From the NCBI GenBank assembly GCA_028819575.1, contig JAPPLB010000147.1:251-64250 (forward strand): 64,000 nucleotides of DNA, read 5' to 3'. The position numbers and the translations under genes are program-made. Below the pieces are notes generated by a model. The model was given only the letters and a program-made list of their open reading frames with translations. It was not told the DNA's origin and did no database searches. Of this stretch, positions 2,767-63,690 are shown one piece after another. Origin of the DNA: Bryobacterales bacterium. Lineage in GTDB: Bacteria > Acidobacteriota > Terriglobia > Bryobacterales > UBA6623. Each line of letters starts with the position of its first letter. Positions within the stretch are counted from its first letter, which is position 1.

Positions 2767-4161
2767 TCAGGCGTTGATCGCCAGCCCGGCTACGCTGTTG
2801 AATCCTTCCTGTACTGCTTCCGCCAGCGTGGGATGTGCGTGGATCGTGGTCATGATCGACCCTACCGTCGCTTCGCTTGACATCGCCAGTACGGCTTCAT
2901 TGATCAATTCCGTCGCGGAAGGACCGATGATGTGCACCCCGAGAATCTCGCCGTATGTCTCCTCGGCAACAACCTTCACAAAGCCGCCGTGCGAGCCGAG
3001 GATGGATGCCTTGCTGTTGCCCGCAAAGGGGAACTTGCCGGCCTTGACGTTGTGCCCCAGTTCACGGGCCTTGGCTTCGGTGAGTCCGACGCTGCCGATC
3101 TGCGGCTCGCAGTAAGTCGCCGAGGGGCTCTGCAGGTAGTTGATCGGATCAACATCTTTGCCAGCGATACTGCCCACCGCGACAAGGCCTTCCATCATGG
3201 CTACGTGGGCGAGTTGCGGTGTGTCTGCGACGATGTCGCCGATGGCGTAGACGCCGGGCTCGGCGGTTCGCATCCATTCATCGGTAATCACAAAATCGCG
3301 GTCCATCTTGATCTTGGTATTTTCGATGCCGACATTGTCCGTATTGGGCTTGCGGCCGATGGCCACGAGTAGCTTCTGAGCGGAAAGCTCTTTCTGTTCC
3401 CCTTTCGAGTCGGTGTATTCCAGGTCCACGCCGCTGCGAGCGTTCTTGACCTTGTTTACCTTCGCACCCACTTCCAGTCGAATGCCCTTTTTTTTGAAGG
3501 CGCGGGCCAGTTCCTTGGAAACCTCCTCGTCCTCGATCGGGACCAGGCGAGGGAGCATCTCGAGGATGGTCACTTCCGTACCAAAGCTCCGGAAGATGGA
3601 GGCGAACTCGACGCCGACCGCGCCCGCGCCGATGATGGCCAGCGATGCGGGAACATCCTCGAGGTCAAGGATCTCGATATTGGTGAGGATGCGGTCGGGA
3701 TCCGCCTCGAGGCCCCCCAGCATCCGCGCCTCTGAGCCCGACGCCAGAATGATGTTCTTCGCGCTCAGCGTGCGGCGATGCCCACCATCGGTCACCTCGA
3801 CTTTGCCGCCGCCGAGAAGCCGTCCATAACCCCGAATGCTCTCGACCTTGTTCTTTTTGAAGAGGAACTCGACGCCCTTGGCGTGCTGGATCACGACCTC
3901 CGTCTTGCGCTTGTTGATCGTCTTGAAATCGAGTTCGATGCCGGTGTGTTTGATGCCCCACTGTTCGCCGTTGAGGGCGTGTTCGTAAAGTTCGGCGTAG
4001 TGCAGGAGCGCTTTCGTCGGAACGCAACCGACATGCAGGCAAGTGCCGCCGAGCATCTTGTCCTTCTCGATGACGCCCACGTTCAGGCCGTATTGGCCGG
4101 CCCGAATCGCGGCCACATAGCCTCCGGGACCGCTGCCAATCACAAGAAGGTCGTATTCCAT
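2767..4161 (-). CDS. lpdA: Dihydrolipoyl dehydrogenase (E3)
   Basis: LLVIGSGPGGY FAD fold, redox-active GGTCLHVGCVPTK and C-terminal HAHPTLAE. Start chosen at MEYDLLVIG (ATG at 4161) rather than the ORF-track start at 4206. Confidence 0.9.
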   Translation of the reverse strand: MEYDLLVIGSGPGGYVAAIRAGQYGLNVGVIEKDKMLGGTCLHVGCVPTKALLHYAELYEHALNGEQWGIKHTGIELDFKTINKRKTEVVIQHAKGVEFLFKKNKVESIRGYGRLLGGGKVEVTDGGHRRTLSAKNIILASGSEARMLGGLEADPDRILTNIEILDLEDVPASLAIIGAGAVGVEFASIFRSFGTEVTILEMLPRLVPIEDEEVSKELARAFKKKGIRLEVGAKVNKVKNARSGVDLEYTDSKGEQKELSAQKLLVAIGRKPNTDNVGIENTKIKMDRDFVITDEWMRTAEPGVYAIGDIVADTPQLAHVAMMEGLVAVGSIAGKDVDPINYLQSPSATYCEPQIGSVGLTEAKARELGHNVKAGKFPFAGNSKASILGSHGGFVKVVAEETYGEILGVHIIGPSATELINEAVLAMSSEATVGSIMTTIHAHPTLAEAVQEGFNSVAGLAINA

Positions 4162-47440: not shown

Positions 47441-47509
47441 CAGGGACCGCCTTGCGGCCTTCGGTCCGGCTGCCGGCCGGTTGCTACAATGAGGGCCTCG
47501 CGAGGCCCC

Positions 47510-48139
47510 ATGTCCTCCACCACTTCAGCGCCTCTCTCTCATCAACAGCGCGAATCGAGCGAGCTCTATCACAGCGATGCCTACGCCTGGTCCCTCGAGC
47601 AGTCCGACGCCCTTCGCCGCCGCGACTTTGACGCCATCGATTGGGAGAATGTCATCGAGGAGATCGAATCCGTGGGCAGGACCGAAAAACGTATCTGGAC
47701 CTCGAAATGCGCCAATACCATCACGCACCTTCTCAAGATCGAGCACGCCAGGATGGCGACGCCTGAAGAGGTTACCGGCTGGGAAGAGGAAGTTCAGGAC
47801 TTCCGCACCGACATGGCTGGGGTCATCGTTGACAATCCCCGCCTGCAGAACCTCTACCCCGAAATGTTCCGCGCCGCCTGGCACCAGGGGCGCAGCAAAG
47901 CGGTCCGCGATCTCGCTTCCTACGATGTTCAGCACAACCTCGAGCCCGATCATCGATCAGCCCGCAAGACTCGCGACCGTACGCTTCCTTCTTCCTGCCC
48001 CTACCGCCTCCACGACGTGACCGCCTTCACCTACGACCGCAAAAACGCCCTTCATGAGCATGACCCCGAAATTCTTCCCGAGGCGGTCCGGCGTTCGCTC
48101 GACTACCACCGCTCGCGCGCGCAGCAGTGGGACCGCTAG
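47510..48139 (+). CDS. DUF29 family protein, copy 1
   Basis: ELYHSDAYAWSLEQSDALRRRDFDAIDWENVIEEIESVGRTEK is the DUF29 signature as I recall it. Start at ATG 47510. Confidence 0.75.
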   Translation: MSSTTSAPLSHQQRESSELYHSDAYAWSLEQSDALRRRDFDAIDWENVIEEIESVGRTEKRIWTSKCANTITHLLKIEHARMATPEEVTGWEEEVQDFRTDMAGVIVDNPRLQNLYPEMFRAAWHQGRSKAVRDLASYDVQHNLEPDHRSARKTRDRTLPSSCPYRLHDVTAFTYDRKNALHEHDPEILPEAVRRSLDYHRSRAQQWDR

Positions 48140-48306
48140 TTTCCTTCCTTTTGCGCAGCTTTTCGCCCATCGCTTCGTTGCGGTGCTCCTCTTCGCTTCG
48201 ACGCCTTGATACGCTCGCCGTCAGCGGCATCTGAATGTTCGTGCCCGCTCTCTTCGTTCCTTTCGGATGCCGGCCACTTGCTACAATAAATCGCTCGCGA
48301 GGCCCC

Positions 48307-48936
48307 ATGTCCACGGCTGCTTCAACACCCTCCACCCTTGAGCAGCAGCGCTCCGCCGAGCTCTACCACGATGACCCCTATTCCTGGTCGCTCGAGCAAG
48401 CCGATGCTCTACGGCGCCGCGACTTCGCTTCTGTCGATTGGGAGAATGTCATCGAGGAGATCGAAGCGGTGAGCCGCAATGAAGCCAGCACCTGGGTTTC
48501 CAATTGCGCGAACGCCATCGAGCACATGCTCAAGATCGAGCATTGCAAGCTCGTTCAGCCCTACGTCGTTCGCAATTGGAGTGATGAGATTCCCGGATAC
48601 CGCGACGGCATGGAAACAGCTTCCCGCAAGAATCCGGGCATCACCTCGCGCTTCGACGAGCTCTTCCGCGAAGCCTGGAACGACGCTCGCAACCACACTC
48701 TGACTGCGCTCTCCCGCTATGACGTGGAGCACAAGCTTTCGCCCGATCGTCCACAGTCTTACAAGCGCCGCAACATGCTTCTCCCCCGCGAGTGCCCCTA
48801 CGATTTTGCCGACGTCACCGGCATCTTCCATGTTCGCGGCGACCGCAAACCCCACTACGACCGCTTCGTTCTTCCGCCTTCCATTCAGAAGATCGTCGAT
48901 GAGCGCTGCCGCGATTCTCCTTCCCGCGACCGCTGA
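48307..48936 (+). CDS. DUF29 family protein, copy 2
   Basis: ELYHDDPYSWSLEQADALRRRDFASVDWENVIEEIEAVSRNEA. Start at ATG 48307. Confidence 0.75.
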   Translation: MSTAASTPSTLEQQRSAELYHDDPYSWSLEQADALRRRDFASVDWENVIEEIEAVSRNEASTWVSNCANAIEHMLKIEHCKLVQPYVVRNWSDEIPGYRDGMETASRKNPGITSRFDELFREAWNDARNHTLTALSRYDVEHKLSPDRPQSYKRRNMLLPRECPYDFADVTGIFHVRGDRKPHYDRFVLPPSIQKIVDERCRDSPSRDR

Positions 48937-52481: not shown

Positions 52482-54527
52482 CTAGGTTAATAACTTCTCA
52501 ATCCAGTGAATTCGAACTGCGAATTCGCTCTGCGGCTCCTTCTTCATGGCTCGCCGGACCCGCTTCAAGTATCGTCGCCCCCGTCTTTTGCGCGCCGCAG
52601 CCGCTGCTAAGCCCATGAACAGCTTATTATCTTCAGCAATCCGAGCAAAAATTTGAGGCTTGAGATCCCGATCGACGAATAGATTGGCCACACCTGCTCT
52701 GATCCGTCGACAGCGATCCCATTCGAACGAAAAGATCGACGATGGCAGTCGCCGCTCAAGCAGCTGCCAAGCCTCGTTAGGCAGACGATCGGAAGCCGCT
52801 GCCATGTGAGTTGCCTCGAATCCTAGCTGAGCAAGTTCCGCTGCATTACGTGATCGAGTGCCGAAGGCTCGTGTTAGAAGGTAAGCCTTGAAGTAGGCAG
52901 CGTGCCCCTCGGAGACCTGCCCTGTGGCGTCCTGAACAGCAATCAGCCATGGATCAACACCGACTTTGTTTGGAACCACATCTGGTTGTAGCACCCGTGC
53001 AAGAGCCACTAACAGAGCTCGATGCTTCCCGGATCCGGTGACCAGATACTGGGAAACAGCCAACGGGTCGCTCGCTGCCGCTGCGAGCCAACCCTCAAGC
53101 CCTCGGCTCTCGGAGTCGTTTTCCAATGCCGAACCAACAACCTCAAGCACTGTGGCCGAGCCGAATTGACTAACAGCACGCATCGCCAGATCGCTGCGCC
53201 GAGCGGCTACCAGCGCATCCAAAGCCGCCGCCTGGCCCTCACCCAATCGGTCTATAACCGCAAACGCGTCATCCTCGATTATGAGATCTTGCGACCAGAA
53301 CGTCGGCTCAGTTACTAACTCAGGTCGATATGCGAGCGCATCCTGCGCTAGGTCAGGTTCTCGTCTTAACCCTTCTGCAAGTTCACTGAGCGTAAGCGCT
53401 TCGAACGTACTCTGCGGAACCATGCGAAGAGTTTCTCCACCTTCGAGTAAGGGGATCAATTTACCAGGGTCACTACTCCATACTGCGCGGCCTAACCAGA
53501 CAGCAGCTTTCGCCAGATCGTCGGTTTCCACCAACTCCAGATGTCGCAATAGGAAGTCGAGCGTATAGTCATTAAGCTCACCACCATTGGTGAGCGCCGC
53601 ATTTGCCACAATTCCACACGCAGCTCGTGCCTCCACGGAGCCCAGCTCATCCTGAAGCAGCATTATCGCCTCTCCAACGGCTTCGGGACGAGACTTGAAT
53701 TCCTCAACCATGCGGTGAAGCTGGCACAATGACTTGAAAGCCCATCGACCCATCGCTCCATCACCGCCGATGTGGCACAGGAAGGTCCGCAATCCAGAGG
53801 CGTCCGGGTGCGCTAGATCGCTGATGGCTTCTACGAGCCAAGAGTCTGTATGGACCTCTTTAGTCTCTGCGTCCATAGCGTCTGCAAAGCGCCTTCGGAC
53901 GCTTCGATCTGTCGACGGCAGAAGCTGGAGATCGAAGCTTATTCCCTTACTAGAGCGGTCCGACGCCGCCAACGTGCAGAAACGGAACGTCCGACGCAGG
54001 CGGGGCCATTGCTGTGACCAAAGAGCCAGGATGACCCGATCGACGTTGACGCCGACCGGCCGTGCCGCGATAATGCGGCTGGTCGGCTCTCCGTATAGAC
54101 CGACGAGCACATATCGGCTCCATGCCTTCTCTGTGTCCGTCAGCGCAACAGGATTAGATCCAATGTCGTGCGTCAACGGTTTTCTGTAATAGTCTAAATT
54201 CGAACCGTGTGGTCTTTGAAACAATACAACAAGACCGTCCAATGACCTCAACATGGCTAGATCGGCGAAATCGATCAGAATGCTGTGCGTCCAAACGCAG
54301 CCTGGTCGAGGCATTTCTGGTGCCGCCCATGTACGCGCCAGAACGTAAGCGCCGAACTCAGTAAGAGGGTAACCAGTGAGATAACCTTCTTTGTCGATGC
54401 AAGCACCTGTGCCAGAGATGTCGCTCAACACGAGCATCGACTTGGCATCGGGAGGTTTCAGTGTCACCGAAGCCGCGAGTTGACGGTGACCCTCGGAATA
54501 ACCATGAAGAGTCTGCTGGAGTGTCAT
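52482..54527 (-). CDS. Large (~680 aa) protein, operon gene 5; GAP1-like by position
   Basis: ATG 54527 forms an ATGA overlap with the upstream GTPase stop. The ORF-track start 54557 is also possible. No catalytic motif seen. The family name is inferred from operon architecture only. Confidence 0.6.
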   Translation of the reverse strand: MTLQQTLHGYSEGHRQLAASVTLKPPDAKSMLVLSDISGTGACIDKEGYLTGYPLTEFGAYVLARTWAAPEMPRPGCVWTHSILIDFADLAMLRSLDGLVVLFQRPHGSNLDYYRKPLTHDIGSNPVALTDTEKAWSRYVLVGLYGEPTSRIIAARPVGVNVDRVILALWSQQWPRLRRTFRFCTLAASDRSSKGISFDLQLLPSTDRSVRRRFADAMDAETKEVHTDSWLVEAISDLAHPDASGLRTFLCHIGGDGAMGRWAFKSLCQLHRMVEEFKSRPEAVGEAIMLLQDELGSVEARAACGIVANAALTNGGELNDYTLDFLLRHLELVETDDLAKAAVWLGRAVWSSDPGKLIPLLEGGETLRMVPQSTFEALTLSELAEGLRREPDLAQDALAYRPELVTEPTFWSQDLIIEDDAFAVIDRLGEGQAAALDALVAARRSDLAMRAVSQFGSATVLEVVGSALENDSESRGLEGWLAAAASDPLAVSQYLVTGSGKHRALLVALARVLQPDVVPNKVGVDPWLIAVQDATGQVSEGHAAYFKAYLLTRAFGTRSRNAAELAQLGFEATHMAAASDRLPNEAWQLLERRLPSSIFSFEWDRCRRIRAGVANLFVDRDLKPQIFARIAEDNKLFMGLAAAAARKRRGRRYLKRVRRAMKKEPQSEFAVRIHWIEKLLT

Positions 54528-55417
54528 CCGCCCAATGTGCGGCACTCCATCAGCCATGCGAGTGGCCTGGTCAAGTCATGAGTCTTGGCTCCGTTCTCCA
54601 AGAGCATGATACGTTTCGACGGAGAATCTAGATTCCTAAGCGCTTCTGCTTCTGGCTTGGGGTGCGCATTCGAGTTGGTCTTATCATAATCACCGCCTTG
54701 GGCGCTAAGCCCATAAATGCGCCATGTCCAATCATCAGCCCCGAGCTGCAGATACTGAGCTAGGAGCGGCAACTTCTGTTCGAGATAGGCCCGTGGGCTC
54801 AGACCTTCTCCGCTAGCCTTGTCCCATGCTGACATCATAATCGCCAACCGTCGGGGACCGTTGTCAAGAGGCGACCGACGTAGTAGTTGCAGTAAGTCCG
54901 CCAACTGAACCTGAGTCGGTGCGAGTTCCGGATGCCACTGAACTACCGGATTCTCCGACACCTCAAGTCCCATTTCATTGGACAGTGCAACTTCATCAAC
55001 AACCCATTTCGGCGCCTGGATTTTGTCTGCATGGATGAAGAAAATAACATCACCTTCATAAAGGATCTTTGCTATTTCTGGATCACATTCGCGATCTTCC
55101 CACATTCGCCTATAGGCTTCTCCAGGGACATCCGGAAATGTGACACGTACAGGCACGCCCGCGTTATCTAATAGATTCATACTGACTAGGCGATTTCCAG
55201 CGACCGCGGTTCGATCCTGGACCTTGGCATCACGCCAACGCGCTGCAATCTCGTTCAAGTGGGAGACTTCCCCTCTGGATAGCTCGTGGAAGCGCAACAA
55301 CGTGTCCACGTCACGCTCGGTTATAAGATGCCAGAGCGCCGCGAGAAATGTAGTCTTCCCAGACTCCGGTAGCCCGATGATGACAATGGAACGTTCAGCC
55401 ATTATCCCTTCCCTCAA
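54524..55417 (-). CDS. P-loop GTPase, operon gene 4
   Basis: G1 IIGLPESGKTT, G3 FPDVPGE and possible G4 MSAWDK. ATGA overlap with the upstream gene. Confidence 0.75.
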   Translation of the reverse strand: MREGIMAERSIVIIGLPESGKTTFLAALWHLITERDVDTLLRFHELSRGEVSHLNEIAARWRDAKVQDRTAVAGNRLVSMNLLDNAGVPVRVTFPDVPGEAYRRMWEDRECDPEIAKILYEGDVIFFIHADKIQAPKWVVDEVALSNEMGLEVSENPVVQWHPELAPTQVQLADLLQLLRRSPLDNGPRRLAIMMSAWDKASGEGLSPRAYLEQKLPLLAQYLQLGADDWTWRIYGLSAQGGDYDKTNSNAHPKPEAEALRNLDSPSKRIMLLENGAKTHDLTRPLAWLMECRTLGG

Positions 55418-56439
55418 GCGTCTAAAGGTACAATTCGCGCAAAAGCGCGTACAAATTCCGGCCTAACAGGCAGTGACACATCCATTGGCGGCGCGGGCTC
55501 GAGCCAGAACGTGAGCAGTTCGGGAACACCTGTGCCGCGCGGCACCGCGTTCGTCTTGGGCGCAGCTGCTATCTTGAACGGCTGAATGACAAAAAACACG
55601 TGATCGAAGAGCTGTTGAATCCTTTCCTTTAGAGAGATGAAGTTTTTTTCAGCTCTCGCCATATGGGGCGATTTATTCACCACATCAATCTTAGTGAGTA
55701 CCAGAGCGAGACGTTGGCCGGCCTGAACTGCTCCTCCGTCAACGAGCCCCTGGAGCATCATTAGGATTTCGCTACGCAAGTTGTGGCGGGCGCCGGAGTC
55801 TATAAGCCGATTGCCATCAACTAAGACGGTAAGTGAATCCGCACGACGCACCTCTGGGAAAGCCATGGCTATCGAAGCGTCATCAGCCGCGCCCTGATAC
55901 TCCTCGCCTGCCCTATCTCCCAAGACGATAGCTAGCCTGTGTCCCAACGGAGCACCTCCCAGATCAAGATGATAAAACCTTACCTCACCTCTGGGAGTAC
56001 GATATGTATGCGGCTCGGCCCTGCGGGAAGCAGCACGAGCATCGTGGCAAGTCTGTTCGAAGGCGTGCAGTGTTTGTGATCGAGCGAATCTGATTTTTGC
56101 AACCGGACCCACTTGAAAGAGCTCGTATAAACTGGCGATCAGGCTTGTCTTGCCAGCATCTCTGGGGCCAATGATGGCAATTACACGTGCGGCGCCCTTA
56201 CGGAGTAGCCTTGATGTTTCAGCTAGAGTCAATGTATCAGCACTCGGTAATACAATGCTCGAAGGCTCCTTAGACTTCTCCTCGCTCCCTCGATCTGTCT
56301 CGGACGTCTCCTCCGCCTCGCGGCCATAGTACGGACAAGCCGACAACTCGAAAGCCTCGACGCAAAGGTCTGTCTCTGAAACCCGACAATCCGGGTTGGA
56401 GCAGAACACTACGGCTTCATCATTGACATCGTTCGCCAT
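55414..56439 (-). CDS. P-loop GTPase with N-terminal Cys cluster, operon gene 3
   Basis: CSNPDC...CVEAFELSAC, then G1 IIGPRDAGKTS, G3 LGDRAGE and G4 LTKID. Confidence 0.75.
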   Translation of the reverse strand: MANDVNDEAVVFCSNPDCRVSETDLCVEAFELSACPYYGREAEETSETDRGSEEKSKEPSSIVLPSADTLTLAETSRLLRKGAARVIAIIGPRDAGKTSLIASLYELFQVGPVAKIRFARSQTLHAFEQTCHDARAASRRAEPHTYRTPRGEVRFYHLDLGGAPLGHRLAIVLGDRAGEEYQGAADDASIAMAFPEVRRADSLTVLVDGNRLIDSGARHNLRSEILMMLQGLVDGGAVQAGQRLALVLTKIDVVNKSPHMARAEKNFISLKERIQQLFDHVFFVIQPFKIAAAPKTNAVPRGTGVPELLTFWLEPAPPMDVSLPVRPEFVRAFARIVPLDA

Positions 56440-56442
56440 GAT

Positions 56443-57546
56443 TCACTCGAGCTTTCTAAGTAGCCGCTCGCGGTAGAACAGCTCACCTAGCAGTAGAGGC
56501 GTGACTGAATGCTCAGAATTCACGCACGTAGCAGCCGCCCAGCCAGCAATCCACGCGTCACCAGCACCAGTCTCACACTGACGCTGGATCGCAAAGTGGA
56601 GCGGAGAGGAGACCGGTGACGGATTCTGCTCTCCGACGAGCTTCTCAAGCCACTCTTGGTTCGCGGCGTTAATTACCACTGAAATAGTGGCGCTGTTCTT
56701 TTCTTCCAATCCCGCACGCGACAGCAAGGCCTTTACGGACGGTGGGCCTGGGAGGAACTCCGTACTGTCCGCCAGTTCCTTTGCGAATACCAACGGTCGC
56801 GCTTCATATTCCACGTCGCTAAAGGAGCAGTTATAGTCCCAACTTCGCTGTCCTATGAGCCACCATAACATCTGCAACTCTTCATCTTGGATGCTCATAA
56901 ACTGGTTCACAGCCCAGACGGCGTCCGCCTGTTCCAGGGTCATTGTCTTCATCGCAGTCCGCACGTCACCCGCTGCGATATTGAATGCTAAAGCTACGCT
57001 GTTCCAATCTGGAGTTTCTCGAACTTTGGCGGCGGCCTTCTTGAAATCGAGCTTGGGAGGCTCCGATGGACTGTAATCTTCAAGATCCGGACGTTTGCGA
57101 TTCTCCTCAGCAATGTGATCAATCGCACTCTCGGCTAGAGCACAGAGGTCCATCGGTACATTCAGTTTACGAGCGCCACCAAGTGCCGCCGTCGTTACCG
57201 CCAATGCCGCAGCTGCACCGATATCTTTGCCGTCCTCCATGAGTACAACAAGGCAGATACCAGCAAGAACCTCTAGCTCGCGATCGTTGTCCTGCATGTC
57301 AAATGCGTCATCAGCGTTCTTGAAGGCTTGGCGAATCTTCTGCAAGGTTTCAGGGGCGGCCTTCTGCCGGGTCCGAAAAACCAGACGAATCAGCGCCTCT
57401 ACATCATCCCGATTGGCGTCTCCGACGACGGAAAGTACACCCTTCCACCTAGCCTCCTTGAGCCCCTGATCGTCGCGGAGTTCAACTTCGCCGTACCAAC
57501 GATCAAAATCCTTATGTATAGGGGGCAGATCTGTTTCAGCCATCAT
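56443..57546 (-). CDS. All-helical protein, operon gene 2; GASH-like by position
   Basis: 367 aa, helix-rich by composition with no enzymatic motif. Its stop lies 3 nt before the next start. Confidence 0.6.
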   Translation of the reverse strand: MMAETDLPPIHKDFDRWYGEVELRDDQGLKEARWKGVLSVVGDANRDDVEALIRLVFRTRQKAAPETLQKIRQAFKNADDAFDMQDNDRELEVLAGICLVVLMEDGKDIGAAAALAVTTAALGGARKLNVPMDLCALAESAIDHIAEENRKRPDLEDYSPSEPPKLDFKKAAAKVRETPDWNSVALAFNIAAGDVRTAMKTMTLEQADAVWAVNQFMSIQDEELQMLWWLIGQRSWDYNCSFSDVEYEARPLVFAKELADSTEFLPGPPSVKALLSRAGLEEKNSATISVVINAANQEWLEKLVGEQNPSPVSSPLHFAIQRQCETGAGDAWIAGWAAATCVNSEHSVTPLLLGELFYRERLLRKLE

Positions 57547-58853
57547 TGTGTCTCCCGTTGTGCGACCTCACGCGCAACCATATCGAGAATACTGCGTTTA
57601 CCGGCTCGAAGCAGAGCCCGCCCGTAGCGTTCGGGCTCGGGCAGGACGAGTTCGTTCTCATCGATAAGATCAAGATGGAGCGCAATCTCCCGTCGTTGAC
57701 TCACCGTGAGATTCCAGAAGCGAAACACAAGGTTGCGGGTATCTTCATCACTCATTGCAACCTCCTTGTCGGCATCAGCCTCTTCAGCTGCATTAGGCGC
57801 AGTATCGGGCATTGCGGACGTATTTGGAGAGGGCTGTTTCACAACCAACGAGGCTACACGGCTCGGGATAGCGATGCAGTGGCGAAAGACAGACTCTCCC
57901 TGTTGAGTCAGTTGAGGACGGTACAGTTCCGGCCTGGACTGCCATTCCAGGCAATGTGTTTTGATTTCGATCTTCCGGTCACTGTCCTGCCCGAGAACAC
58001 TGATGTCGATCAGGTTGTAGCTAGGCTGCCATCCGACTTCATAGCGATCCGGGTTCACGGCACCTGTGCTGACACGGATGTAGTCTTCGTCCCTAGTAAT
58101 TCTCGTTTGGTGCTTATGCGCAAAGAGTTGAATTGTCGCTCGTCCACAGATGGCATCGTTCACCTCATCCTGGTCCAAAAACCAATCTGGTGGGTGATGG
58201 CACAGTACCAGGTTGACGACATCATCCACCGGATCGAGTACTGTCTGGAGCGGACTAAGATATAGGCTCGCAGGGTTATCATCCTTGCCATCTACACCGG
58301 ACAACAGAGTTGAAGTTAGGCCGTGGAGCATCAAATGAACTCCCCCCTCGATCAACAGACCCTGCTTCCAATAGAGACGATCTGGGGGGTAAATTTGACA
58401 GTTGAACAACTTAGCAAAATCATTGTAGGCTTCGAGCGGCGCAACCAGCGCGCGACCGCAGTCCTGATCAGCGAACTGTGTGCGTAGCTCGCGTTCGCGC
58501 TCATGTGGAGCCGCAGACACAATTGCTGCTTGCGCGTTCCGGACCGCGGGCGAATTGATTATGACTCTCCGGTCGATGTCATGATTGCCTGGGATCACAA
58601 AAACTCTTTCCATTGGACATCCACAGGCATCGGCAAATTCCTCGAGCCACCAAATTGCAGCCTTATACTCCTCTGGATCTCCCTTAAACGCTATGTCGCC
58701 GCCAATCAAGAGAGCACCGACTGGTCCGTGCTGTTGGATTCGCTCTCGAACATCTTGGACCATCCGTGTCCGAAAAGGCCGGTCCGGGTCGGTATCTGGA
58801 TTGATGCAATTCGGTGCTCGAAAATGGATGTCAGCGATGTGAAGCAACAACAT
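57543..58853 (-). CDS. Calcineurin-like metallophosphoesterase with C-terminal helical tail, operon gene 1 (putative effector)
   Basis: Motifs HIADIHF, LIGGDIAFKG, VIPGNHD, LCHHPP and FAHKHQ. A low-complexity linker precedes a ~90-aa helical tail. Confidence 0.75.
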   Translation of the reverse strand: MLLLHIADIHFRAPNCINPDTDPDRPFRTRMVQDVRERIQQHGPVGALLIGGDIAFKGDPEEYKAAIWWLEEFADACGCPMERVFVIPGNHDIDRRVIINSPAVRNAQAAIVSAAPHERERELRTQFADQDCGRALVAPLEAYNDFAKLFNCQIYPPDRLYWKQGLLIEGGVHLMLHGLTSTLLSGVDGKDDNPASLYLSPLQTVLDPVDDVVNLVLCHHPPDWFLDQDEVNDAICGRATIQLFAHKHQTRITRDEDYIRVSTGAVNPDRYEVGWQPSYNLIDISVLGQDSDRKIEIKTHCLEWQSRPELYRPQLTQQGESVFRHCIAIPSRVASLVVKQPSPNTSAMPDTAPNAAEEADADKEVAMSDEDTRNLVFRFWNLTVSQRREIALHLDLIDENELVLPEPERYGRALLRAGKRSILDMVAREVAQRETQ

Positions 58854-60151: not shown

Positions 60152-60371
60152 CCACCCCGAAAACCCCTGCTCAGAGCGACTGTAACAGTAGGGATGCTTT
60201 CTGCTACGGTCGAAATGCGATCTGGTGAGCCACGAGGTTCGAACCGTGCCGTCCTCTTCGAGAGGTCTCTGCATCACTGCCTTCCTTGAGGTAGTGCTAG
60301 TGGATGCGTAGCACCACCAGGTCCAGCTAAAGATCGGCCACTTCTAGCATTAGAGAGGTCGAAGACCCAGG

Positions 60372-61100
60372 CTAATCTTCAACCACTAACTGCTTCTGTT
60401 TGATCCACTTTGCGCCGCTTGGGGTCACTACGAGAAGATCGATTGGACCGCCTACTGTTTTCTCACGATTCTGAAAGCGGAGGGTTTCAATCGTGCTGCG
60501 AATGCCAAAAACCGCGAAATCGATTGCGTCTTGCAGAGTAAAGAACTCAAATGGTACTCCGAAAGATGGCAATGGTACTGCTGGCAGGTCGCCCTCTTGG
60601 ACTAAGTTCACTTCATTGAGTAGACGCTGAAGAACATCGATTTCACCTCCCCAGTTAGCACCCTGTCGATTGACGGGATTCAAGCGAATGACCGGCCCAA
60701 CGGCGGGATCAACAGAAAAAAGTGTCTGCTCCCATCCTGCCTCCGTTTGAGTGTACCCAGCTATATGAAACATAGTGCCAGGGCGGACGCCGAGCGTAGA
60801 CAAGTAGGCCTTAAGTTCATTCGCAACCTGTTCGGCGTACAGATTCTTCCCCACTAGTTTTTCGACGATGAAGGACTCAACAAAGCCAGCGATGGGAACG
60901 CCGCCAATGTCTGCGGGACCGCAAGTTGCAATGCCAATGTTGTTCGGAGCTAGAAAGAGCTTCCTTGCACTATCAGATGTAGTTAGCGAGAGCGTGTGTT
61001 CCGGGCCGCCAGGCAGGGCACGGGGGATCGTGAGGGTCAGGCGACTATCAGCCGCCATGACGATTCCTTCGCGAGTGTAAACGCTGATGATGAGCGACAT
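60372..61100 (-). CDS. Proteasome-beta/HslV-like Ntn hydrolase with Ser after initiator Met
   Basis: From ATG 61100: M-SLIISVYTREGIVMAADSRLT aligns with T1-TIVGV...GVVIAAD17-R-T of proteasome beta subunits. The TTG at 61109 in the ORF track is less likely. Confidence 0.6.
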   Translation of the reverse strand: MSLIISVYTREGIVMAADSRLTLTIPRALPGGPEHTLSLTTSDSARKLFLAPNNIGIATCGPADIGGVPIAGFVESFIVEKLVGKNLYAEQVANELKAYLSTLGVRPGTMFHIAGYTQTEAGWEQTLFSVDPAVGPVIRLNPVNRQGANWGGEIDVLQRLLNEVNLVQEGDLPAVPLPSFGVPFEFFTLQDAIDFAVFGIRSTIETLRFQNREKTVGGPIDLLVVTPSGAKWIKQKQLVVED

Positions 61101-61105
61101 AGCGC

Positions 61106-61969
61106 TCAAGAGTCCTTGATCGGCGGCTGATTTGTTTCTTGCGACAGTTCGTTCAGACGTACCTCGAGAGCCTTAAGAAAGGCCTTTCGAACTTTGCTTT
61201 TCTGCGCGGAGTCGAGGTCGTGGCCAAGCACATTTCGCGAACTTGCCAGGAGAGGTGCATCAATCTGCTTCGGTCGTGTTTTCGTCTGTAAGATGCTGTC
61301 GAAAAGTGTGGCAACTTCTCCCTCAGGCACCTTGTTAGCTAAGTTCCGTGCGACTTTTTCGAGAGGATCGACAGCATCACTAGATCCACTTGGTTCAGGT
61401 GTAGGATCCTCAGAGAGTAGCTCAGATACGGTGTGAGAACTGCGCTTCATGAAATTGCCGAGGTCAGATGCTTCCCATTGGTAGGTTACATCGGCCTCTT
61501 GAAGAAGAAACAAGGACTGACTTCCGCGGGCCGGCTTGATTCCGATCAGGTGAACTCGAACCCCATACTCTTGTGCCACTTGTACCCCGACTCTGAGATC
61601 TTCATCCCCGGAAAGCAGTACGCACTCAGCCATAGCTCGGTTGCGTGCGAGTGTGATCATATCGGTGATGATCAGAGAATCAACACCTTTCTGCTGACCG
61701 TAAGAATTCACGAAGCCGAGTCGGATCTTGACATCCGTCAGTTCAGCCAACGCAATGTGCTGAGGTGACGGCCCCTGGGAAGTGCCGTCGTACCAGTAGA
61801 TTCTGAGCAACTTCAAGTTCGACTGAGTTTCCGCGAATGCCTTCAGGTAGGCAACAGCGGCACTGTGGTCGAGATTCATCTCACCGCGCTTCAACTTCTC
61901 ACCGAAAAGCTCGTGTGACCCCTGGGCGAAGAGGTAGCCTGCATCAACGAAGACGGCGACACGATCCAT
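61106..61969 (-). CDS. NYN (LabA-like, PIN-fold) nuclease domain protein with helical C-terminal extension
   Basis: From ATG 61969: MDRVAVFVDAGYLF, QQKGVDSLIITDM and LLSGDEDLRVGV are the NYN acidic motifs. Confidence 0.7.
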   Translation of the reverse strand: MDRVAVFVDAGYLFAQGSHELFGEKLKRGEMNLDHSAAVAYLKAFAETQSNLKLLRIYWYDGTSQGPSPQHIALAELTDVKIRLGFVNSYGQQKGVDSLIITDMITLARNRAMAECVLLSGDEDLRVGVQVAQEYGVRVHLIGIKPARGSQSLFLLQEADVTYQWEASDLGNFMKRSSHTVSELLSEDPTPEPSGSSDAVDPLEKVARNLANKVPEGEVATLFDSILQTKTRPKQIDAPLLASSRNVLGHDLDSAQKSKVRKAFLKALEVRLNELSQETNQPPIKDS

Positions 61970-62064
61970 GCCAAGTTTTCTCTTCAGAACCACGTGGAGG
62001 CCCCCGAAGGGGCCTCCTATTAAGCTGCCCAATTTATTAAGACTAGATCGGGCAACCACTACGA

Positions 62065-62406
62065 CTATATAGACACCTTGTTGCTCTTGTCAACCGCGAC
62101 GGCCGACTGCCTCACCTCTCTGCCGCCGACAGGACGGAGTGGCTGATCAAGCAGTGTCGTCGCCGCTGCGAGCACTATGTCTTGGATCAGTCTCCCGATG
62201 CTGCCCTCAGCGCGGTCCCAGCGGTTCCTTGCCTGTCTCCAGAGTGAAATCTGGAGCATCTCCTGAGACAGCACCACGAACTTTCCCCTTCTCTTCAGGG
62301 AATGTCTGCTCAAAGCGTCGTAGAGAAGGGGAGCATTCTGTGATCTGACGCTGATCATTACCGAAACGATCCTTTCCGCACCATGTCTCTTTGCAAATCT
62401 TCGCAT
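62065..62406 (-). CDS. Doubtful hypothetical ORF
   Basis: 113-aa ORF upstream of the NYN gene. Its start is only 20 nt from the divergent 62427 start, and no family is recognised. Confidence 0.2.
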   Translation of the reverse strand: MRRFAKRHGAERIVSVMISVRSQNAPLLYDALSRHSLKRRGKFVVLSQEMLQISLWRQARNRWDRAEGSIGRLIQDIVLAAATTLLDQPLRPVGGREVRQSAVAVDKSNKVSI

Positions 62407-62426: not shown

Positions 62427-63035
62427 ATGGCCAACTATACAGCGAGAGACCTTGTCGATACCGGTACATTGCCGCCCAGGGCACTGGAGGCCTGCGTCGA
62501 ATGCATCCGCTTGCGGCGCAACATCCTCGTAACTGGCGAGACAGGTTCTGGCAAGACCACCTTGATCCAGGCCCTGGCGGGCCTGCTCCCCGACAGCGAA
62601 CCCGTGCTCATTCTCGATGACGGCGACGAACTAGCACTGGACGATCTGCACCGAGAGCGTGTCTTTCTTCGGAGAGGAGACCTCCAGAATCCGCCGCGGC
62701 AAGTGGTTGCACGTGCTCTTCGGAACACGCCCCGCCGCCTCATAGTCGGTAACATTTGTCCTCCTGAGACCGGAGAGATACTGCGAGCTCTTGGCAGCGG
62801 CCGCTATAACGGCAGCTTGCTCGCAACGGGCGCGGCCTCAGCCGATACGGCTCTCCGCCAACTAGCTGCATGGAGCCTAGTCGATGGCTACTCCTGGGAG
62901 GCCGCCTGCCACGTAATCATCGCGCAGATTCACCTAGTGATGCGCCTCGCGCGTGGACCCGGCGGTTTCCGTCACGTGGCCGAAACCGCTTACTTGGAGG
63001 CGTCCGAAGGCGGCTGGACGCTACGGGCGGCTTAA
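62427..63035 (+). CDS. VirB11/CpaF-like ATPase core, N-terminally short and with degenerate catalytic motifs (possible remnant)
   Basis: Walker A GETGSGKTT is kept. LDDGDEL replaces IEDTREL, RLIVGNICPPET replaces RLIVGEVRGEEA, and SGRYNGSLLATGAA replaces TGHGGSISTVHA (compare the gene at 24679). Confidence 0.5.
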   Translation: MANYTARDLVDTGTLPPRALEACVECIRLRRNILVTGETGSGKTTLIQALAGLLPDSEPVLILDDGDELALDDLHRERVFLRRGDLQNPPRQVVARALRNTPRRLIVGNICPPETGEILRALGSGRYNGSLLATGAASADTALRQLAAWSLVDGYSWEAACHVIIAQIHLVMRLARGPGGFRHVAETAYLEASEGGWTLRAA

Positions 63036-63177: not shown

Positions 63178-63690
63178 ATGTCAATGCACACTTTAACGTT
63201 CCGCCTCAGCAATGAGGACCATCGGAATCTAGAGAGGATTGTGAATGAGATGCAAGAGTCAACCAGCGTGGATCTTACATCGAGCGATGTCTTGCGGATG
63301 CTCATCCGCGAAGAGGTTCATAGACGGCAGTCGTATGGCCCGCACTTGTTGCGCGACGTAATTTGTACTCGGACTCACGACGGAAAAGCCGTAGTTACTG
63401 GAGTGACTCATGACTGGGTGGTGCATTCCCCCGGTGGATTCGAATGGGGTTATTCCGGGAACGGTCCCTTGGAGTTAGCGCTCAACGTCCTGCTCTACGC
63501 GACGGGAAATCGACGTTTCGCCGGTAAGCACTGCTTGCGATTCCGCGATGAGGTCGTCGGAAGAATTCCGCTATCGGGAGGCGTACTGCGTGCACGGGAA
63601 GTCCTTGAGTGGGTCGCACGCTTCAGCGACGACGACCGAGCCAGAGAAGCTGTGGCGGGGCGCAAAGAATCAGCGGAACCAGGGAGTTGA
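63178..63690 (+). CDS. RHH domain fused to GFEWGY-motif (DUF6166-like) domain
   Basis: N-terminus HTLTFRLSNEDHRNLERIVNEMQ...SDVLRMLIREEV is RHH-like. C-terminus VVHSPGGFEWGYSGNGPLELALNVLLYATG is a paralog of 45473-45787. Confidence 0.65.
   Translation: MSMHTLTFRLSNEDHRNLERIVNEMQESTSVDLTSSDVLRMLIREEVHRRQSYGPHLLRDVICTRTHDGKAVVTGVTHDWVVHSPGGFEWGYSGNGPLELALNVLLYATGNRRFAGKHCLRFRDEVVGRIPLSGGVLRAREVLEWVARFSDDDRAREAVAGRKESAEPGS

Follow-up and report, generated by a model that had tools for sequence, protein, structure and literature searches.

The locus studied here raises the question of whether a gene for an NYN-type nuclease and a gene for a proteasome-like hydrolase, separated by only five nucleotides, constitute a coupled two-gene system or two independent genes that have come to lie side by side. 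The window, i.e., the complete stretch of 64,000 nucleotides that was analysed (Bryobacterales bacterium, contig JAPPLB010000147.1), contains the following relevant features, with positions referring to the window:

62064 to 62093, minus strand: predicted sigma-70-like promoter 5' of the NYN gene, TTGACA-18-TATAGT (11 of 12 consensus positions; consensus match only)
61996 to 62057, minus strand: structured 5' leader with two hairpins (62057-62023 and 62017-61996), from predicted folding
61106 to 61969, minus strand: gene for an NYN (LabA-type, PIN-like) nuclease of 287 amino acids (ATG at 61969, TGA at 61108-61106)
61490 to 61963, within the NYN gene: NYN domain (residues 3-160), followed by a variable linker
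61145 to 61357, within the NYN gene: conserved C-terminal block (residues ~205-275)
61117 to 61113, within the 3' end of the NYN gene: Shine-Dalgarno-like AAGGA
61101 to 61105, minus strand: intergenic spacer GCGCT of 5 nt (direct sequence reading)
60372 to 61100, minus strand: gene for a proteasome-beta-like Ntn hydrolase of 242 amino acids (ATG at 61100-61098, TAG at 60374-60372)
61097-61095, 61049-61047, 60962-60960 and 60920-60918, within the hydrolase gene: codons for the Ser nucleophile (TCG), D18, K47 and G61, respectively
60193 to 62380, minus strand: lower-GC cassette of 2.2 kb comprising promoter, leader, NYN gene and Ntn hydrolase gene, a block in common with contig L033

The sequence agrees with the earlier note on the gene layout (two minus-strand genes 5 nt apart, with the stop and start positions given above) and on the lower-GC patch that it placed between an SRAP gene and a degenerate ATPase. 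GC content is 51-55% at 60.2-62.2 kb compared with 65-68% in the SRAP gene (E=1e-65) and about 60% at 62.4-63.0 kb, and the ATPase is an N-terminally truncated protein of the TrbB/VirB11 type. As had also been stated, the neighbourhood of the pair in the window contains no AAA+ unfoldase gene. No promoter-like or terminator-like site was found at the junction between the NYN and hydrolase genes. DNA homology with locus L027 begins at 62094, as does a separate and shorter segment in common with locus L032. The leader is predicted to fold with a minimum free energy of -40.8 kcal/mol (z=-4.25 versus shuffled sequences). Its second hairpin, GGAGGCCCC-TTCG-GGGGCCTCC, is nearly invariant 5' of NYN genes, including those of the NYN-only loci L034 and L038. 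When the pair and its leader were searched against Rfam, no family was matched, and a lone snoRNA match is attributable to chance.

The protein encoded by the upstream gene matches the Pfam NYN model (PF01936) with E=3e-13 and 50.9 bits, above the cut-off of 24.2, and has 4,734 homologs. The motifs FVDAGY (residues 7-12), QKGVDSLI (93-100) and LLSGDEDL (118-125), from which an NYN/LabA identity had originally been read, are all present, and a set of 30 homologs shows no variation at residues D9, D97, D103, D122, E123 and D124. Both the identity and the acidic motifs thus stand, as does the C-terminal extension, which spans residues ~170-287 and consists of the variable linker and a conserved block of ~70 residues. 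This block matches neither OST-HTH nor any other Pfam model, and the protein has no Pfam match past residue 160. The family profile matched no solved structure in the PDB, and PADLOC returned only HEC-09 with E=0.013. Full-length homologs in Azospirillum replicons are monocistronic.

For the downstream protein, single-sequence searches yielded nothing significant in Pfam, NCBIfam, PADLOC or PHROGs and only chance matches in the PDB. With the Pfam Proteasome model (PF00227) it reached 11.6 bits over the N-terminal 19 residues only, below the gathering score of 22.4. An AlphaFold calculation from 30 close homologs was of low confidence (pLDDT 58.5) and was superseded by an AlphaFold2 model based on a 121-sequence alignment (pLDDT 96.5, pTM 0.92). 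Foldseek returned 398 PDB matches at E<=0.001 for the latter, and the best 50 listed were all 20S proteasome beta subunits (best E=1.2e-8, TM (target) up to 0.73). The best viral structural match in the BFVD was a Siphoviridae 'proteasome beta' protein (E=3e-13, TM 0.76/0.83).

Some gene callers choose the alternative start M15, giving versions of 228 amino acids. The ATG at 61100 is supported as the start because homologs keep an MS(L/F) N-terminus; for nearly all family representatives the alignment begins at residue 1. The residue after the initiator methionine is Ser or Thr in 118 of 121 diverse homologs (100 Ser, 18 Thr), and D18, K47 and G61, the equivalents of Asp17, Lys33 and Gly47, are kept in 118, 116 and 117 of them, respectively. 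The profile built from the 121 homologs is in register with mature yeast beta1 (E ~1e-4), such that S2 corresponds to Thr1, D18 to Asp17 and K47 to Lys33. The interval between D18 and K47 comprises 28 residues versus 15 in the proteasome, so an insertion is present here. In the model, the S3/S4 hairpin is 13 residues longer than in the proteasome, and further insertions occupy residues 131-146 and 162-188. The latter lies between the helices at 155-161 and 189-209, which probably correspond to H3 and H4. Modelled fold, conservation and profile alignment together identify the downstream gene product as a true Ntn hydrolase of the proteasome-beta kind, with a Ser1/Asp17/Lys33 active site. Everything that the earlier note had proposed for this protein has therefore held: the Ntn fold, the position-for-position alignment with the mature N-terminus of proteasome beta subunits, Ser as the nucleophile directly after Met, the conserved Asp17, and a Lys near the Lys33 position after an insertion.

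The same does not apply to the proposal that the two proteins form a coupled system, a claim that was itself made dependent on conservation of the pair as neighbours in other genomes. We collected 77 non-redundant loci with a complete hydrolase homolog and scanned the upstream neighbours of 65 of them with Pfam. An NYN gene resides directly upstream of the hydrolase gene in only two of the 77, L032 and L033, both close relatives of the window with 83-95% DNA identity. When 138 loci were examined with an NYN HMM and with tblastn, the only further NYN gene near a hydrolase gene was an unrelated, distant and possibly frameshifted one, 480 nt upstream of a 51%-identical hydrolase homolog (L065). 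Close relatives of both genes occur alone. Hydrolase copies with 83-90% protein identity lack an NYN neighbour (L030/L031, L137, L138, L139), and a group of NYN copies with 73-76% identity lacks the hydrolase (L034-L038). The DNA homology of such single-gene copies stops at the gene borders: it is limited to window positions 61100-60367 for L030/L031 and to 62034-61147 for L034-L038. In L027 it covers the NYN gene and extends 68 nt into the hydrolase gene, after which a phosphotriesterase gene follows. Of the earlier reading, both domain assignments are thus retained and the coupled system is not.

Note that the spacing of only 5 nt, the junction free of promoter-like and terminator-like sites and the movement of a 2.2-kb block shared with L033 do show that the pair behaves as a unit within the lineage. 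The identity with L033 amounts to 95% at the DNA level over exactly 60193 to 62380, and the SRAP gene lies ~2.5 kb away on that contig, in the opposite relative orientation compared with the window. In the window and its relatives, co-transcription is probable and the pair has moved as a single 2.2-kb cassette, so that local functional cooperation is possible.

Close spacing, small genes and a mobile, lower-GC region beside other conflict genes are also what a toxin-antitoxin-like module would display, in which the hydrolase neutralises or degrades an NYN RNase toxin or the roles are swapped. Natural single-gene loci for both genes lead us to reject this explanation, which we regard as highly improbable. 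The NYN gene is evidently tolerated without an intact hydrolase, since L027 carries an intact full-length NYN gene (76% identity) beside a hydrolase stump of 23 codons, and NYN genes stand alone in L034-L038 and in the Azospirillum replicons. The hydrolase gene, in turn, is solo in most loci. Neither protein has a convincing match to a PADLOC or toxin-antitoxin model, the hydrolase having none at all in PADLOC.

We therefore consider it probable that a narrow lineage of Bryobacterales (Acidobacteriota) has brought together, in a single transcription unit, two genes that stand on their own in other genomes. The upstream one would be a LabA-type NYN nuclease gene with its own predicted promoter and conserved structured leader, monocistronic elsewhere, and the downstream one would encode a stand-alone enzyme from a family of proteasome-beta-like Ntn hydrolases that is widespread but uncharacterised. 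Since the two genes are found apart from each other in nearly every other genome, the pairing appears to be a local juxtaposition in a mobile region rich in defence genes rather than a conserved system of two parts. An NYN-proteasome 'system' as such is of little consequence if the juxtaposition is specific to the lineage; the hydrolase family is a different matter.

This family comprises ~1,700 clusters at 90% identity and combines a complete predicted Ser1 active site with the absence of any Pfam, NCBIfam or PADLOC model. A pattern scan of 185,579 species genomes detected 29 loci; these represent over 15 phyla, and identity between members of different phyla reaches 82%. A tblastn search with the window hydrolase found nothing in PLSDB plasmids, nor did the window hydrolase and a phage-type member in INPHARED phages. 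Type ISP/IIG restriction-modification enzymes reside up- or downstream in four loci (raw tally). Other neighbours include HEPN_AbiU2, Abi_C, Hypoth_Ymh, a CAP12-type TIR protein, Mrr, a NucC-like protein, BglII, a C5 methylase with ApaLI, SIR2_2, DUF4062, transposases and integrases. Family members also occur as cargo of conjugative elements, at IS-flanked sites, next to phage tail and lysis modules and in prophages. Frequently the hydrolase gene comes last, as the final cistron after conflict genes of unrelated kinds (Type ISP, HEPN, TIR, NYN), and no AAA+ unfoldase was found among the scanned neighbours of homologs. These gene neighbourhoods suggest that the family moves between genomes by horizontal transfer and settles in defence islands, conjugative elements, IS-flanked sites and prophages; it has no conserved partner.

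A proteasome-beta fold with a full catalytic set, together with the label '20S proteasome alpha/beta subunit' that JGI attaches to some members, could be taken to indicate a housekeeping self-compartmentalising protease for protein quality control, similar to HslV, Anbu or BPH. We deem this improbable in view of the patchy spread just described, the IS-flanked, prophage or defence-island settings and the absence of an AAA+ partner. Furthermore, the insertion between H3 and H4 is potentially incompatible with double rings according to Fuchs et al. (PMC8665760).

A more serious competitor arises from the recurrent position of the hydrolase gene. Of 68 loci with an upstream open reading frame, 40 have this frame on the same strand and no more than 150 nt away, and the partners identified include NYN, HEPN_AbiU2, Abi_C, Hypoth_Ymh, CAP12-type TIR, DUF6602, DUF2513 and DUF2971 proteins. 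The hydrolase might accordingly be the conserved downstream cistron of modular two-gene conflict systems with interchangeable effectors (NYN, HEPN, TIR, Type ISP) encoded upstream, and as a protease it would mature, control or back up the effector with which it is paired. The window pair would then be one such module. The pairing with Type ISP genes in four loci (72-87% identity for the hydrolase, 66-82% for the ISP protein) exhibits gaps of -10 to 22 nt and a Shine-Dalgarno-like GGAGG/GGGGGAG just 5' of the ATG. In one family member (P0388), an extension of 300 amino acids is joined in frame to the hydrolase domain in a fusion-like arrangement, and the window pair travels as one cassette. However, no common region or adaptor was detectable in the upstream proteins (phmmer E<=1; blastp), and many loci have a housekeeping gene (SAICAR synthetase, ribonucleotide reductase, KdpD) or no co-directional gene upstream. 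One hydrolase gene (P0007) opens its island and is preceded by a gap of ~900 nt, and close relatives of both window genes exist solo. Unrelated defence genes normally share islands, so the same picture would be expected without any module. We thus regard the modular arrangement as unlikely and retain the joining of two otherwise autonomous genes as our preferred explanation.

Two further observations belong here. The same-strand upstream gene repeatedly encodes a nuclease- or NADase-type effector of 230-300 amino acids, which could mean that real two-gene modules exist. A HEPN identity was considered for the N-terminal 300 residues of P0388 on account of an Rx4H-like motif and was dropped, as there is no Pfam match.

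How might the hydrolase work? Methionine aminopeptidase would take off the initiator Met and expose Ser1, whose free amino group and hydroxyl would then attack an amide bond, presumably a peptide bond. D18, K47 and G61 would serve as the equivalents of Asp17, Lys33 and Gly47, and neither a propeptide nor an AAA+ unfoldase would take part. The S3/S4 hairpin and H3/H4 insertions favour a specific substrate or a non-canonical assembly over a degradation barrel of the HslV kind.

The genomic habit of the family, with its defence islands, restriction operons, conjugative cargo and prophage tail-lysis junctions, suggests conflict biology. We tentatively raise the possibility, which we hold at well below even chances, that Ser1 proteasome-like hydrolases play a part, so far overlooked, in prokaryotic immunity or in mobile-element conflict. 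They would act as solo Ntn proteases, or their gene would be a portable last cistron whose product processes, licenses or backs up various effectors encoded upstream. If true, this would be the first proteasome-family enzyme in anti-phage defence, and the NYN pair of the window would be one working example. The two-gene cassette with its own predicted promoter is a handy construct for testing this.

Comparison with known systems places the two proteins differently. The NYN protein shares with LabA-type proteins (PF01936, COG1432), whose function in bacteria is largely unknown (PMC5499597), the same domain above threshold and all acidic active-site residues. It differs from the common bacterial combination of NYN with OST-HTH in that its C-terminal block corresponds to no known model. 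The hydrolase has the alpha-beta-beta-alpha Ntn fold of 20S proteasome beta subunits and HslV in its predicted structure. Its nucleophile is likewise predicted to open the mature chain, its counterparts of Asp17, Lys33 and Gly47 align in register, and like HslV of Gram-negative bacteria it lacks a propeptide beyond the initiator Met. In contrast to these enzymes, Ser replaces Thr in 100 of 121 family members and the distribution is mobile and patchy. The 242 residues with three insertions also exceed the compact HslV subunit of ~175 amino acids, and there is no adjacent HslU or other AAA+ protein.

Connectase, an archaeal protein ligase, is likewise a monomer-type proteasome homolog with an S3/S4 insertion, and a weak profile match to MJ0548 over residues 1-57 was not significant (E=0.09). 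Connectase lacks helices H1 and H2, whereas the hydrolase model has both (70-82 and 89-101), and it is found in methanogens only. By description, the nearest counterparts of the hydrolase are the uncharacterised proteasome homologs surveyed by Fuchs, Alva and Lupas in 2021 (PMC8665760). Like their PMI ('multiple insertions') groups, the hydrolase is stand-alone, has no propeptide, and possesses a Thr1/Ser1-Asp17-Lys33 triad and an insertion between H3 and H4, while its S3/S4 insertion is as in PMI-5/6. The lack of a long insertion after H2 speaks against PMI-3, PMI-4 and PHI. A wide but sparse spread that includes phages is common to both. That survey, the only one of such homologs, reported neither a conserved context nor an AAA+ partner and provided no informative setting (PMC8665760). 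The defence-island and last-cistron pattern described here does not appear in it and constitutes a concrete, testable lead to the function of the family.

Direct re-reading of the sequence gave the coordinates and sequence features of the NYN gene and the downstream hydrolase gene exactly as described in an earlier note, which had proposed a coupled system of an NYN nuclease and a Ser1 proteasome/HslV-like Ntn hydrolase. The two ORFs are separated by the spacer GCGCT:

ATG 61969 to TGA 61108-61106, minus strand: NYN ORF, 287 aa
ATG 61100 to TAG 60374-60372, minus strand: hydrolase ORF, 242 aa

Used alone as a query, the window hydrolase merely grazed the Pfam Proteasome model (11.6 bits). Its homologs form 1,736 clusters at 90% identity and 200 clusters at 50% identity (E<=1e-30), and nearly all of them are stand-alone proteins of 225-270 aa that are matched from residue 1 on. 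Conservation was evaluated in an alignment of 121 members sharing 28-88% identity with the window hydrolase:

Residue after Met1: Ser in 100 and Thr in 18 of 121, equivalent of proteasome Thr1
D18: 118/121, equivalent of proteasome Asp17
K47: 116/121, equivalent of proteasome Lys33
G61: 117/121, equivalent of proteasome Gly47

S2, D18 and K47 were equated with Thr1, Asp17 and Lys33 because they fall in register when the 121-member profile is matched to mature yeast beta1 (E about 1e-4), and G61 with Gly47 because it follows 14 residues beyond K47. AlphaFold2 with a deep alignment produced a model with a pLDDT of 96.5 and a pTM of 0.92. At E<=0.001, Foldseek retrieved 398 PDB chains, and the best 50 listed were without exception 20S beta subunits; in BFVD, the best match (E=3e-13, TM 0.76/0.83) was a Siphoviridae protein that carries the annotation proteasome beta. 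Taken together, the conserved catalytic positions, the profile register and the model fold confirm the Ntn reading. The model differs from the proteasome by a longer S3/S4 hairpin (28 instead of 15 residues between D18 and K47) and by further insertions at 131-146 and 162-188, the latter located between predicted helices that were equated with H3 and H4. Two loci carry paralogous hydrolase genes, either in tandem (L017, 8001-8720 and 8811-9536) or on opposite strands (L123, 2111-2793 and 4407-5048), and the encoded proteins might form hetero-oligomers. In the 535-aa family protein P0388, residue 303 ('VSLIIS', with GTG as a possible start codon) opens the hydrolase domain; the 300 aa before it are in frame, contain an Rx4H-like motif and gave no Pfam match. 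Either a fusion or read-through in gene calling explains this layout.

The assignment of the upstream protein was likewise upheld, by a Pfam NYN match above the cut-off (E=3e-13, 50.9 bits, cut-off 24.2) and by the acidic residues D9, D97, D122 and D124, which are invariant in 30 homologs. In these, the C-terminus consists of a variable linker and a conserved block of ~70 aa, for which no match was found among Pfam models or solved structures.

Loci were gathered from species-representative genomes (29), metagenomes (80) and viral contigs (18), supplemented by targeted look-ups, and 77 of them encode complete, non-redundant hydrolase homologs. An HMM built from homologs of the window NYN protein, together with tblastn, placed an NYN gene immediately before a complete hydrolase copy only in L032 and L033, which are close relatives of the window (83% and 95% DNA identity over the pair). 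In agreement with this, when 65 upstream neighbours were scanned with Pfam, NYN was detected in two cases and Type ISP enzymes in four. In L030 and L031, the match to the window extends only from the hydrolase ATG to 5 nt beyond its stop (85.6% identity in DNA comparison), and the gene is flanked by transposases. The hydrolases of L137 and L138, which share 90% protein identity with that of the window, occur without NYN; the gene for the one from L139 (83%) stands first in an island that also contains C5 methylase, ApaLI, TIR_2 and PLDc_2. NYN alone (73% identical) is present in L034-L038 in a stable chromosomal setting, and the full-length NYN homologs carried by Azospirillum replicons are monocistronic. 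On an Acidobacteriota chromosome (L027, 7091-8069), an intact NYN gene (76% identity) is followed by just the first 68 nt (23 codons, 91% identical) of the hydrolase gene and then by a phosphotriesterase gene; the hydrolase has been deleted naturally at this locus. In L065, a hydrolase homolog of 51% identity is preceded, at a distance of 480 nt, by a distantly related NYN-domain gene (2902-3518) that contains a zinc-ribbon-like insert and is apparently split over two frames by a possible frameshift. Compared at the DNA level, these loci show that each of the two genes travels alone. An obligate partnership is disfavoured because natural single-gene states exist, and the single-gene loci of both genes also argue against a toxin-antitoxin relation. 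Thus, the earlier note was right in its observation and domain interpretation, while the coupled system it envisaged is unsupported outside one narrow lineage: when genomic co-occurrence, which it had named as a check, was followed across the 77 complete loci, the neighbourhood proved not conserved.

Within the window's lineage the two genes most likely form a transcription unit. A strong sigma-70-like promoter match (11/12 positions) upstream of the NYN gene is followed by a leader with two stable hairpins (z=-4.25) that gave no Rfam match; promoter and leader together occupy 61996-62093 on the minus strand. The second hairpin, GGAGGCCCC-TTCG-GGGGCCTCC, is kept before the NYN genes of other genomes including NYN-only loci, and it looks like an attenuator or terminator since a T-run follows it in L034 and L038. 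Neither a promoter-like nor a terminator-like site was found at the NYN/hydrolase junction, and a 2.2-kb block (62380-60193) is common to the window and L033, with rearranged flanks. Given these features, the hydrolase gene would be co-transcribed from the NYN promoter. GC content across the pair is 51-55% compared with 65-68% in the adjacent SRAP gene, and the 52-64 kb stretch as a whole lies below the remaining window. The same lower-GC region harbors a five-gene GTPase-associated conflict system (52482-58853, minus strand), and further genes are present in the window:

52482-54557, minus strand: GAP1-N1
54524-55417, minus strand: DO-GTPase1
55414-56439, minus strand: DO-GTPase2
56443-57546, minus strand: GASH
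57543-58853, minus strand: calcineurin-like phosphoesterase with GAAD domain
62427-63035, plus strand: truncated secretion ATPase, 202-aa ORF
63178-63690, plus strand: 170-aa protein, weak RHH/CopG-like N-terminus and DUF6166 domain
47489-48139, plus strand: DUF29 paralog
48235-48936, plus strand: adjacent DUF29 paralog

The ATPase ORF matches only the C-terminal part of TrbB/VirB11/TadA-type proteins and retains Walker A; this remnant, truncated at the N-terminus, hints that a conjugative element has decayed here.

Throughout the family, hydrolase neighbours are heterogeneous, and besides the Type ISP group and the NYN pair, clustering with BLAST and phmmer recovered only closely related loci, joined in a few pairs by their common flanks. 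Among them, genes for conflict and mobility are abundant: Type ISP/IIG restriction-modification enzymes, Mrr and BglII, HEPN_AbiU2, Abi_C, Hypoth_Ymh, CAP12-type TIR and NucC-like proteins, integrases and transposases, in addition to DUF6602, DUF2513, SIR2_2 and DUF4062. A conjugative element carries one member as cargo, and members on viral contigs reside between tail and lysis genes. Co-residence in defence islands probably accounts for these neighbours in the simplest way. Modular two-gene units, in which the hydrolase follows swappable upstream effectors, are less likely and rather doubtful. They would agree with the co-directional ORF ending <=150 nt upstream in 40/68 cases and with four loci (L015, L093, L097, L101) that retain a Type ISP gene directly before the hydrolase gene at 72-87% hydrolase and 66-82% ISP identity; the gaps there measure -10 to 22 nt, and Shine-Dalgarno-like GGAGG/GGGGGAG motifs precede the hydrolase ATG. 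However, the partner proteins share no common region, and several hydrolase loci have housekeeping partners or none. Lasting interest attaches to the hydrolase family itself, which is widespread, unannotated, intact in its catalytic residues and associated with mobile and defence regions.

Our literature search found no paper tying such proteasome homologs to defence. Identity with HslV was rejected, as the window hydrolase is larger, has insertions and lacks HslU, and a weak match to connectase (E=0.09) is no evidence of relationship. Fuchs, Alva and Lupas (2021; PMC8665760) described 22 new families of proteasome homologs that have a Thr1/Ser1-Asp17-Lys33 triad without propeptide and, in some families, insertions at S3/S4 and H3/H4; their gene context was uninformative and included no AAA+ partner. 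The window hydrolase fits these published features and, compared by published description, probably belongs within or beside the 'multiple insertions' (PMI) groups.
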